This document shows positions 3,001 through 6,000 of a DNA stretch of 23,198 bases, in pieces; the stretch's first letter is position 1; every line of letters starts with the position of its first letter. The stretch comes from a virus. Taxonomy: Duplodnaviria > Heunggongvirae > Uroviricota > Caudoviricetes. The DNA lies in the IMG/VR virus record IMGVR_UViG_648276650_000002, positions 1 through 23,198 of that record, one strand, 5' to 3'. Made by a program: the position numbers.

Positions 3001-6000
3001 ATTACGTTGTTTTTCACGACGTTCAAACTCCGAATCCATCCACATTGAGACCTGAGCCGACAAGTCAAGGCAGAGGCCAGACAGGGAAATTATTTGCTCG
3101 ATATCCATATCAATAATATTGGAGTTGATTAACTCCATTAATTGATAAAGGTTATCTGCTGTATTTTTTGCGGTTTCTAGAGAACTGTCTCTACTGAGCA
3201 TATTCAGACTCCGTAAGCTTTACGCATGAAAAGGTCAGATATATGGCGGTACTCGTCGCCATAGACCATAAAGAAAAGACATGCTGTTTTGTATGCCGCT
3301 TTATCGATTAACATTTACTTACCCATTTAAAAGTTGGTTAACGTGGTTGAGTAAATCGCTGTTGCATTCCCGCTATTTTTTTCATCAGGCCTGCATGTAG
3401 TAGTGGGTGAATCTCATCACATGTGGGCTTCCAGTCCTTAGCCTGTTGCATCTTGGCTGTGTGCCAGGCTAAGTGGGCTTCCTGTGTGGTGTTGAAAAGC
3501 CCAAGGTGTGAAATCTTTCCGTTTACGTTGATTCGTGCCCGAAACTTAGCGGACTGTTTATGCCAGATAACACCCTGTGGGTATTTCCCTCGTAAACGGG
3601 CGCGATCACCTGTAAATAAGTTAAGTGCTGGGGGAACAAATACGCAGTATTCAGGACCATATATCTTGTTACCATGGTGTAGCAGGTCCTTATCTAGCAC
3701 ATATCCATCGCGATAGTTTTCTTTCCAGAACGCCAGAAAGTTTGAGAATCGCAGCCACTCATCGGCAACAGTACATCCGGCGTAACTGTGCTCTAACTGT
3801 TCTGTGTGCGGTTTGTAGCAGCGAGATAACATGCCGCTCCAACGACGGTGAGCGCTGTGGTGGCACATTATTCCGTCGATGATAATAGTGCTGGGGAATT
3901 CTACGTCATAATGACCAACACCATACTCCAGGCTTTTTAAATGCCTACGCCGCGAAACTTTTGATTCAAGAAGACTATCTATTTCAGATTGGTTCATTTC
4001 AATCTCCTCTGAAATTTGGTTGCACGTATCCCCACCAGGGATGGTGTGATTTAAACTACCTATTAATTAATTTAATTTTATTTCGATGCTTTTCAGTAAT
4101 TCATGTACCTTAATGGTATTATCGAAAATAAGTGATGCCATCAGGCAATCAGCGTCATCACTGTCTTTTCCTGAAAAATATGATTCGTTATATACGTGAG
4201 CCAGTTCCCTGAGTTTTGCAGCGCTGACTGTGGCATAAAAAATATCATCGGCAATATCATCTCTATTCCCGATGGGGGGGTTAACTGTCTTTGCAGTATT
4301 TGCTAACTCTTCGATGTATGCGTAAGCTGTTTCACGGGTTTTATCGAAAGAGCGAATGAGGCAGGCTAAGCCGCAATCAGTTTCCTCGTTCATTTCTTCG
4401 GTGTTTCTATAAATCATTTCCAGAAGAGTATTGCCTTCGGAAATCTGAGCGACGATATCATGAAGCATGTCTAATGGAGTTTTCATTTATTCATTCTCCG
4501 GCCAATCATAACCAAGTTCATGGTTTAGAACAGAAAGATTATCCCTTAACTGATTGATACAAATTTTAATGAGTGCCGCTGGTTTATATGCAACATCTGG
4601 ATCTGATTCTGCGTACTCAAGCGCATTGATTACACGATCAATATCCATCGCAATTTTGTGGACAGTTCCGTTCTCGGAAAGCATTTTCTCTACATTCATT
4701 TCATAGGCTCCGTTGTCTGCTGATGAAGTGAATTTAGCAAAATGGTAAAAGCCATGCAAATGATAAATGCTAAATTATTTACTTTTTCTTTTATGTATTT
4801 GATAAATAATATAATTATTTATTATTATTCTTCGGTGGGCATAAAAAAACCCACCATCAGGTCGGGTGGGGGGGGGTAAAGATGGGGGTTACAGGGCGGG
4901 CATTTCATCATTGTCAACATAACGCGTATGCTTAACAATAGCTGAAACAAAATGCATTTTCTCGATGCTATCAGGACTTAAGGTGATGGGCCTGTGATCA
5001 CTGTTTACACTTGAGAATTGATAATCGCCATCGCGAGTTTTACTCATGATTTTTATCATGTTATGCCCATCTTTTGTTCGCACAAAAACCTCATCACCTG
5101 TATGAACTTGGGTGTTTGGCTCTATGACGACATATTCTCCAGACTGTATGCGTGGCCACATGCTGTCTCCCTTCACTTTCAGCCCATAGGCATCCCTATC
5201 CGCGCTGTATATTTGTAGCCATCCAGCGTGGATCTCTAGCATATCGATCATTCCGTCAATCCCAAGAATCGCTTCCCCTACAACTGGTACAGCTCCCGGA
5301 CGGACTGATCCGACATACTCCAACTCGCTTTTAATACTGCCAGGAGCATTGTGTGGACTATCCAGCCACCCAAACGGACGATCCAAGGCCTGTTCAATCT
5401 TTCTGGCCATTTTGTCCCCTATGTTTCGATGGCTATTGCCCCCAAGCAACTGGCTCAACTGGGCAGGGCTTATCCCGCACAATTCTGCGAAAGCTGCTTT
5501 TGTCGTATGTCTGTCGCGCTTCAGGAACTCAACAATGAGCTGCTCAAGGTTTGATTTGCGTATGCTTTTTATGTCCATGTCAAAATAATCTCATTATTTA
5601 GCAATGTGGTAAATACACAAACTGCTAAATGATTATTGCATTTAATTTAGCAAAAAGCTAAAGTTGATTCATTGCAACAGGAGACCGTAATGAACAACCA
5701 ATTACTTGCTTGGCGTAAGTGCTCAACAAAAGAGCAGTGGGCAGATCTTGCTAAAAAATCAGGCACATCTCCGGGATACCTGAATCTCATTGCTTATGGT
5801 CATCGCAATGCTTCCCCCAGACTGGCATTGGCGATCGAGAGCGCATCAAAGTCATTCGTGAATAAGCCAGTTATTACAAAAGAACAGTTGGTTTTCAAGA
5901 GCGGTTCTGAGGTGTGATATGTCGCACTCGATCACTACCGAAAACCAAGTTAAGCCATTGGATATCGATTATCGCGATCCGCGCGGTGTGATTGTGCATG

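Follow-up and report, generated by a model that had tools for sequence, protein, structure and literature searches.

A putative IPA-HNH homing endonuclease gene in the early-left operon of a lambdoid prophage

We describe a gene on the minus strand of IMG/VR virus record IMGVR_UViG_648276650_000002 (Duplodnaviria; Heunggongvirae; Uroviricota; Caudoviricetes), positions 1 to 23,198; this whole stretch of 23,198 nucleotides is called the window below. The window has the gene order of a lambdoid prophage, with an integrase gene (313-1485), leftward accessory genes, an S24/LexA-type repressor, a cro-like gene, an O-like initiator and a primase-helicase, and onward from these a Q-like antiterminator, holin, endolysin and spanin genes, and terminase subunits. 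One of the leftward accessory genes encodes a protein of 219 residues that joins a C-terminal AP2 domain to an N-terminal domain of the IPA-HNH family, and that is carried on what appears to be a mobile cassette. The features on which the argument rests are as follows (L numbers denote comparison prophages, P numbers related proteins).

3338-3997, minus strand: coding sequence, stop codon included, of the 219-residue IPA-HNH-family AP2-domain protein (list of open reading frames, exact look-up, PHROG, ratio of non-synonymous to synonymous substitution rates (dN/dS), AlphaFold2)
4004-4009, minus strand: ribosome-binding site GAGGAG, 6 nt 5' of the ATG (sequence)
3608-3928, minus strand: N-terminal domain, residues ~24-130, a putative divergent His-Me-finger-like effector (AlphaFold2, BFVD matches, homologues)
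3614-3697, minus strand: conserved core L101-D102-K103-D104...N110...Y113...C118...N126, residues 101-128 (invariant alignment columns, codons checked)
3686-3694, 3659-3661 and 3620-3622, minus strand: codons of D-K-D, Y113 and N126, respectively (verified)
3719-3721, minus strand: codon 93, approximate intragenic recombination breakpoint in homologue P0002 (pairwise alignment)
3443-3589, minus strand: AP2 DNA-binding domain, residues ~137-185, three-stranded sheet and helix (profiles, hhalign, model)
3341-3442, minus strand: C-terminal helical extension, residues 186-219 (AlphaFold2 helices 190-196 and 200-216, alignments)
~3305-4029: mosaic cassette carrying the gene (one-flank prophage comparisons, junction sequences)
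4018-4046, minus strand: intergenic linker, hairpin CACCATCCCTGGTG (4033-4046) then TGCAACC (4018-4024) (junction alignments with L015, L016, L026, L029 and L022)
3204-3314, minus strand: uncalled 36-residue reading frame MLIDKAAYKTACLFFMVYGDEYRHISDLFMRKAYGV between the 219-residue and 67-residue genes (junction sequences)
4733-4749: operator-like palindrome TTTACCATTTTGCTAAA (oL), 5' of the 70-, 139- and 219-residue genes (pattern search, repeats)
4889-5578, minus strand: repressor, 229 residues, S24/LexA-like
5672-5917: cro-like gene

The initial annotation had placed a gene at 3338-3997, and the reading frame, initiated by ATG and preceded by its GAGGAG site, occupies exactly that span. The gene is real, and purifying selection acts on it: Nei-Gojobori dN/dS values against diverged homologues, with dS unsaturated, are 0.18, 0.10 and 0.12. 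Full-length homologues of the protein number 113, and AlphaFold2 models the whole chain from a 61-sequence alignment with a predicted local distance difference test score (pLDDT) of 94.6 and a predicted template modelling score (pTM) of 0.87. Two overlapping plus-strand frames (3423-3716 and 3625-3882) were set aside as shadows of the minus-strand gene. The exact protein is recorded as WP_001076398.1, "hypothetical protein [Escherichia coli]", a member of a 96-member cluster at 90% identity; 360 contigs carry a near-identical member of that cluster, which goes by the name "AP2 domain-containing protein [Enterobacteriaceae]", and the copy in E. coli EC2001 is labelled a hypothetical protein by the Prokaryotic Genome Annotation Pipeline (PGAP). 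The gene has a GC content of 46.7%, its immediate neighbours 38-39% and the window as a whole 49.9%. A megablast search of the gene against the phage collection gave no match, and among 5,426 complete E. coli genomes only 2 matched the region.

The AP2 domain and the IPA-HNH family

As a single sequence, the protein matches Pfam AP2 (PF00847) weakly, with an E-value of 0.005 and 17.5 bits, under the 33.3-bit cut-off; 23 of its 61 relatives match the same model individually. A profile built from the 61 relatives matches the AP2 domains of WRI1 (7wq5, E 5.4e-8), ERF1, ERF096 and TEM1, with E-values from 5.4e-8 to 0.043, and hhalign, run against aligned canonical HNH_3-AP2 proteins, pairs residues 141-193 with them at a probability of 98.5%. 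The AlphaFold2 model places strands at 143-146, 151-158 and 161-168 and a helix at 171-188, and Foldseek superimposes it on the AP2 domain of TEM1 (7et5) with a root-mean-square deviation (rmsd) of 1.7 Å over 43 columns and a probability of 1.00. A C-terminal AP2 domain is thus confirmed at the level of the family profile and the structural model. The helical extension that follows it is, in the alignments, kept only within an enterobacterial prophage subfamily.

The wider family was reached with tblastn against 50,697 phage records, of which 1,493 matched, 816 of them Vibrio phages. Among the matches are the ICP1 coding sequence annotated "Previously called: GP59" (E 3e-19, 39.5% identity over residues 53-169) and the ICP1_2004_A protein at 118614-119246, the position of Gp209 (E 6e-14); an alignment shows the motif LDKD...GNK.Y.P..C..VP...N to be common to the window protein and both of these. 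Gp59, Gp115/116 and Gp209 are the proteins that Barth et al. 2023 (PMC10448857) named "IPA-HNH HEGs" (homing endonuclease genes, HEGs). According to that study, IPA-HNH proteins escape the Pfam HNH_3 model, HHsearch sees an HNH-like domain in them, and AP2 is the partner domain. In our searches, too, HNH_3 matched neither Gp59 nor Gp209. Their survey was limited to phage genome records (taxid 28883), and temperate phages, prophages and lambdoid phages go unmentioned in it; in the literature we searched, no other paper used the name IPA-HNH. Judged by sequence, the window protein is a direct relative of ICP1 Gp59 and Gp209, and so a member of the IPA-HNH family.

The N-terminal domain, for which there is neither a Pfam model nor a solved structure, belongs to a very large set of proteins: its profile collects 25,447 cluster representatives at 50% identity with E<=1e-3, 10,148 with E<=1e-10 and 1,620 with E<=1e-30. 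Several database records label such relatives 'DNA-binding domain protein'. The only named profile support for "HNH" comes from PHROG labels (phrog_953, E 5.9e-80, and others, 'HNH endonuclease'); no profile assigned the domain to a different, non-nuclease family. A Foldseek search of the isolated domain against BFVD predicted viral structures gave 66 matches at E<=1e-3, mostly uncharacterised; the labels on a few of them name an HNH homing endonuclease, a DNA-binding protein or a restriction enzyme.

The partners of this domain vary. In the window protein it is joined to AP2; in Staphylococcus phage Romulus it is joined to an I-HmuI NUMOD-like domain (PF22083, E 2e-7, above cut-off), and a weaker match of the same kind comes from Bacillus phage BSP9 (E 0.0028, under the Pfam cut-off). 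DUF723 matches at the N-terminus of P0100 (E 0.023) and P0025 (precomputed annotation) are weak and sub-threshold. The domain stands where HNH_3-AP2 proteins and I-HmuI have their nuclease domain. Relatives also occupy niches typical of HEGs, lying within an interrupted DNA polymerase region (Romulus), beside ribonucleotide reductase (BSP9) and beside the clamp loader gene gp44 (P-HM1). Taken with the invariance described below, the partner swaps and HEG niches indirectly favour an enzymatic effector role for the domain.

We also observed some relatives of 400-571 residues (P0305-P0311) that hold two copies of the N-terminal domain each, and one (P0104) in which the domain and an AP2-like region are fused to NUMOD4 and an HNH_3 domain with a degenerate D-H (RFIDGD). 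These may be fused tandem HEGs.

Family alignments show G28, W53, Y72, D102, K103, D104, N110, Y113, C118 and N126 to be invariant, and R59, C60 and C75 nearly so. Every one of the 227 relatives recovered by word-indexed searches has the D-K-D triplet, as does each of 147 representatives that an exhaustive search gave (374 in total), and D-K-D, Y113, C118 and N126 are unchanged across relatives at ~30-45% identity. In the AlphaFold2 model the domain runs from a beta-hairpin (37-46) through four helices to a strand (100-102, V-L-D), a 16-residue loop, a second strand (119-121) and a helix (123-128). By eye, VLD102-K103, C118-V-F-V and P-A-L-N126 can be matched to VVD74-H75, L-R-W-V and K-I-N96 in the I-HmuI segment V-V-D74-H75...N87-L-R-W-V-T-Q-K-I-N96. 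In this alignment, which is without statistical support, the distance between the second strand and the helix asparagine equals that in I-HmuI. MAFFT likewise puts D-K beneath the D-H of a canonical relative. His-Me nucleases have a metal-binding Asn or His in the first turn of their core helix; N126 is invariant and lies in the predicted helix 123-128, its equivalence to N96 coming from the manual alignment only. The resemblance would be one in which the metal-ligand positions D102 and N126 are retained, the general-base histidine is replaced by lysine, and the structural asparagine is gone.

Three of the cysteines, C60 (~3818-3820), C75 (~3773-3775) and C118 (~3644-3646), are kept in at least 90% of the family, and with another ligand they could form a structural zinc site.

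The cassette and its early-left operon

In prophage L015, which shares the repressor and the first two genes of the operon with 94.7% DNA identity over 4029-6106, homology breaks off 32 bp 5' of the ATG and a different gene follows. On the other side, seven prophages that have an identical 67-residue downstream gene and lack the 219-residue gene are homologous only as far as 3305, 33 bp past the stop codon, and in E. coli EC2001 (L001), where the gene is present, homology ends at 3275. From these break-points, in comparators that share one flank each, we place a mosaic cassette at ~3305-4029. Its joints (upstream ~4018-4029, downstream ~3275-3314) each fall ~30 bp from an end of the gene. Prophages without the gene are those of Citrobacter sp. 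NCU1 (L037, repressor 94% identical) and E. coli VREC0864 (L002, repressor 90% and immunity region 82% identical), as well as L022, L024, L026-L029 and L031. In L002 an IS5-family transposase (3423-4403) stands at the site equivalent to that of the gene.

Short sequences mark both joints. Upstream, the linker hairpin has the form CACC-N-GGTG in the window and ACAC/GTGT in other prophages, with further linker sites in L015 (~4020-4045), L016, and L026, L029 and L022 (~3828-3860). The linker precedes different genes in different prophages, and is therefore a likely recombination joint; a joint or an RNA element of the early-left operon are both possible roles on this sequence evidence. In prophages of the L026 type the cassette-less junction reads ...TGCAACC TGAAAACAGGGTTAGGTTAAAAATGACTTTCATCAAA GATAAAGCGGC.... 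Downstream, the stop codon of the 36-residue frame abuts the start of the 67-residue gene, and prophages without the 219-residue gene have a 38-residue version (called in L027) with a different N-terminus (MTFIKD...). Since the two versions differ in this way, the downstream joint lies inside the first four codons.

Lambdoid prophages hold homologues with 55-81% identity to the window protein at seven positions. P0002, like the window gene, comes after the 139-residue gene. P0004 stands sixth in the same operon, in three different immunity types, and P0007 follows the repressor directly. P0009 lies immediately ahead of xis/int, P0005 in the interval from DnaB to Q, P0010 in that from primase to Q, and P0003 ahead of the holin. 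P0002, 81% identical overall, does not differ from the window protein up to and including residue 92 and has clustered substitutions from residues 93-94 on, and is thus an intragenic chimera. This pattern is that of "nuclease genes occupy boundaries of genetic exchange", and supports independent mobility of the gene.

A 17-bp palindrome, TTTA(C/G)C-N5-GCTAAA, is found at 4733-4749, 5597-5613 and 5646-5662, the latter two copies lying between repressor and cro, and there are no further copies in the 23-kb window; the pattern search returned 6 matches (both strands) against 0.66 expected by chance. These operator-like sites mark oL and oR for this immunity type, and weaker copies are seen at ~4758-4774 and ~5616-5634. 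The repressor gene is followed on the minus strand by a stem-loop and T run (~4842-4870), with the third operator copy downstream of it. A consensus promoter scan called no minus-strand promoter at the position of pL, and that position is therefore inferred. With an operator copy 5' of three genes and a terminator-like stem-loop before it, the 219-residue gene comes third in an early-left operon under repressor control, which bears out the leftward early operon proposed in the initial annotation. A transcript shared with the repressor, like that of lambda rexAB, is unlikely, as the stem-loop and T run and the 4733-4749 operator intervene before the 70-residue gene. The flanking genes had also been described as AT-rich ORFans. 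They are AT-rich, by the GC contents given above; they are not ORFans, for they belong to PHROG families without known function, and the 67-residue gene (p67) occurs in 1385 index blocks of the assembly collection.

Several observations concern other parts of the prophage. The 139-residue neighbour is rearranged in EC2001 (L001 7171-7588) and split into frames of 74 and 76 residues in L023 and L030 (2715-3135), with the 219-residue gene intact, and may be dispensable. In L005, L006, L009, L011, L015, L027 and L028 a small canonical HNH gene (Pfam HNH/HNH_5, 91-142 residues) lies between the DUF4222 gene and the O-like gene; the equivalent site of the window (~6060-6116) is without it, a second, independent presence/absence polymorphism of a nuclease gene in the same phage group. 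Inside the O-like initiator gene two 57-bp direct repeats (6422-6478 and 6491-6547), ~88% identical and spaced by 69 bp, look like origin iterons. Two minus-strand genes, 10275-11225 (phrog_7003) and 14225-14839 (phrog_5483), stand reversed within the rightward late region in a moron-like arrangement.

Weighing a nuclease against a DNA binder

The reading we prefer, and hold with even confidence, is that the gene is a putative free-standing HEG of the IPA-HNH family, forming a self-contained mobile cassette within the pL-like early-left operon of a lambdoid prophage. By this account, the repressor (4889-5578) would silence the operon through the operator at 4733-4749, and the 70-, 139- and 219-residue genes would be expressed early after induction or infection, as the operator and terminator anatomy suggests. 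The AP2 domain, itself confirmed, would bind a specific DNA sequence, and the N-terminal effector would nick or cut the DNA of cassette-less relatives, phage or prophage, a role suggested by its HNH_3-like position and by D102-K103-D104, Y113 and N126. Recombinational repair from the cassette-bearing genome would then copy the gene together with flanking markers, giving gene-sized joints, many positions and intragenic chimeras.

The results that weigh against this reading mostly concern the nuclease. The window protein has no match to Pfam HNH_3 (PF13392), even at E<=1, and none in NCBIfam. The single relative among the 61 that matches HNH_3 does so through an extra C-terminal NUMOD4+HNH_3 module, not through the shared domain. 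Our positive control was built from 55 canonical HNH_3-AP2 proteins, in whose alignment D74-H75 is invariant; its profile retrieves I-HmuI (1u3e) with an E-value of 5.7e-7. The profile of the window family retrieves no nuclease from the PDB, and 1u3e is not among its matches. When the two alignments are compared by hhalign only the AP2 part is matched; the N-terminal halves by themselves give a probability of 1.7%, and the putative cores 0.15%. Foldseek with the model of the isolated N-terminal domain (pLDDT 90.4) has a best E-value of 3.1 against the PDB. Colicin E9 appears there with E 5.7, a probability of 0.03 and an rmsd of 14 Å. Foldseek is weak on such small motifs, so that the negative result does not exclude a beta-beta-alpha-metal fold. 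Matches to deoxycytidine kinase and ferritin (E 0.06-1) were set aside as chance. With Pfam, NCBIfam, hhalign, PDB profiles and Foldseek (full model and isolated domain) all negative for the N-terminal domain, we reject its membership of canonical HNH_3.

In canonical His-Me nucleases the catalytic histidine ends the first beta-strand and comes after D, E or H; the corresponding position after D102 holds lysine in all 374 sequences inspected. This histidine is nearly invariant among His-Me fingers according to Jablonska et al. 2017 (PMC5714182), who list only three groups without it: PacI, with a tyrosine in its omega loop, and inactive Smad and Enpp, which bind DNA or substrate. Lysine is not mentioned there, and the study that named the IPA-HNH proteins (PMC10448857) is bioinformatic only and mentions neither the histidine nor an active site. 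With lysine replacing histidine family-wide, any chemistry would have to be non-canonical, with lysine as the base or with a loop tyrosine as in PacI, and cutting activity is unproven. Y113 is an invariant tyrosine in the loop that corresponds to the PacI omega loop, the relevance of which is speculation by analogy. A homing endonuclease is plausible from the sequence evidence, and its catalysis unproven. Of the architecture originally assigned, a combination of HNH_3 and AP2, the AP2 half stands on profiles, hhalign and the model, and the HNH_3 half fails in every profile and fold search. The general class of free-standing phage homing-endonuclease-like genes is upheld by the Gp59/Gp209 relatives, the AP2 domain and the mobile cassette, and independent mobility by the joints, the absences and the seven positions; the nuclease half of the claim falls short, its motif being unrecognised as HNH_3 and its histidine absent.

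The remaining points against the preferred reading concern mobility. Comparison with prophages lacking the gene located the joints (~4029 and ~3305) and did not yield the insertion point in full: look-ups by the exact 139-residue gene, the exact 67-residue neighbour and the repressor found no clean empty site with both flanks identical. Furthermore, among the matches listed for the exact 139-residue neighbour, the gene is at the same place in 10 of 10 contigs. Four further carriers that came from the E. coli collection and the p67 look-up (L001, L023, L025 and L030) have it as well, whether the 139-residue neighbour is intact, split or rearranged. On these contigs and prophages, the gene appears to be fixed within this immunity type.

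Linkage to one immunity type is among the points that favour the strongest rival, which we consider rather unlikely. It holds that the protein is a domesticated, non-catalytic, sequence-specific DNA binder derived from a homing endonuclease, acting as a repressor, a roadblock, or an anti-defence or anti-competitor factor, with the AP2 domain and the histidine-less N-terminal domain both binding DNA by analogy with CasPR, PLE CapR and Smad MH1. The histidine is missing in every relative inspected, and the known histidine-less His-Me domains include inactive DNA binders (PMC5714182). AP2 prophage proteins that purely silence transcription are documented in the CasPR preprint (10.64898/2026.02.23.707548), Barth et al. 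(PMC10448857) discuss HEG domestication explicitly, and the 'DNA-binding domain protein' labels of several relatives agree with such a role. However, D-K-D...Y...N, invariant in over 370 sequences, has the look of an active site and not of a degenerate relic, relatives sit in classical HEG niches that include an interrupted DNA polymerase gene, the cysteine cluster of CasPR and CapR is absent, and the gene changes positions as a HEG does.

From the same facts about the domain we draw a further suggestion, tentative but possible: that the IPA-HNH N-terminal domain is a His-less derivative of the His-Me finger, which either cuts by a chemistry undescribed for the superfamily, with lysine as base or a PacI-like tyrosine nucleophile, or represents a large, misannotated family of nuclease-derived DNA binders, and which in temperate phages would serve as an early-expressed, repressor-controlled weapon or regulator.

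The second rival, which we rate as improbable, is an active nuclease that benefits the phage and does not home. Its targets would be competing prophages, satellites, superinfecting phages (in the manner of Odn) or host DNA, or it would take part in early recombination, and its mobility would be ordinary shuffling of lambdoid modules. The company that the gene keeps is in line with this, as the early-left operon of related prophages holds accessory genes that include ParE-like, Lar-like and BRO/ORF6N genes; so is the repurposing of HEG-derived nucleases against satellites in ICP1 (PMC10448857), and joints at gene boundaries with a conserved upstream linker are what ordinary lambdoid mosaicism produces. 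Against it, seven positions and an intragenic chimera exceed simple module inheritance, there is no evidence for a specific target, and PADLOC has no match for the protein or its four neighbours, by which we rule out a known defence system. That the frame is a chance or decaying one without function is barely credible: the PGAP label 'hypothetical protein' and the lack of an NCBIfam model are outweighed by dN/dS of 0.10-0.18, thousands of homologues, a confident fold prediction and a ribosome-binding site, which rule it out.

Seen within the window, this is an unremarkable selfish or accessory gene of a phage. Two points are of wider interest. First, IPA-HNH proteins, so far drawn from phage genome records only, are now placed in repressor-controlled early operons of enterobacterial lambdoid prophages, where they mark joints of mosaic exchange and occupy seven or more positions, which bears on how temperate phages shuffle their modules. 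Second, phage databases annotate the family 'HNH endonuclease' though the catalytic histidine is absent from all members examined. If the family is active, it has an undescribed variant of the active site; if it is inactive, the 'homing' interpretation and annotations by the thousand call for revision.

Comparison with known systems

CasPR (CapR + AP2) and the PLE CapR resemble the window protein in being derived from HEG modules, CasPR also in being prophage-encoded with an AP2 domain, and they set an example of a function other than that of a nuclease. Reports of CasPRs come largely from Bacillota, and the CapR domain of CasPRIB1 has a cysteine cluster at C33/C35/C37/C56/C58 (10.64898/2026.02.23.707548). 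The window protein has its cysteines at C45, C60, C75, C118 and C193, with no clustered C-x-C-x-C. Thus it is without the cysteine-cluster CapR domain, an absence established by inspecting the sequence, on which we rule out membership of CasPR/CapR, and it keeps an invariant cluster resembling an active site. PacI is comparable in lacking the catalytic histidine, with its tyrosine (PMC5714182) finding a counterpart in the invariant loop residue Y113 of the window family. However, there is no detectable similarity of sequence or fold between them, the window protein has none of the Cys4 zinc sites of PacI, and the role of Y113 is purely conjectural.

I-HmuI (1u3e) is like the window protein in the by-eye alignment of the core and in the NUMOD-like domain carried by distant relatives of the N-terminal domain. 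It differs in that the equivalent of His75 is lysine, the equivalent of Asn87 is unconserved, and there is no profile or Foldseek match. The canonical HNH_3-AP2 homing endonucleases (PF13392 + PF00847), reportedly described by Magnani et al. in 2004, are represented in our comparisons by P0113 and its homologues, including the H-N-H endonuclease of phage BF23. They have the same arrangement of an N-terminal effector and a C-terminal AP2 domain, which in the window protein is 56% identical to that of P0113 over the segment, whereas the N-terminal domain of the window protein is unalignable to HNH_3, is ~45 residues longer and has D-K for the invariant D-H.

The IPA-HNH proteins of ICP1 (Gp59, Gp115/116 and Gp209) share the N-terminal motif, the C-terminal AP2 domain, invisibility to HNH_3 and location at boundaries of exchange. 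In the window, by contrast, the gene lies among the early-left accessory genes of a temperate phage, not beside DNA polymerase, ribonucleotide reductase or terminase, and its product carries the C-terminal helical extension of the enterobacterial prophage subfamily.

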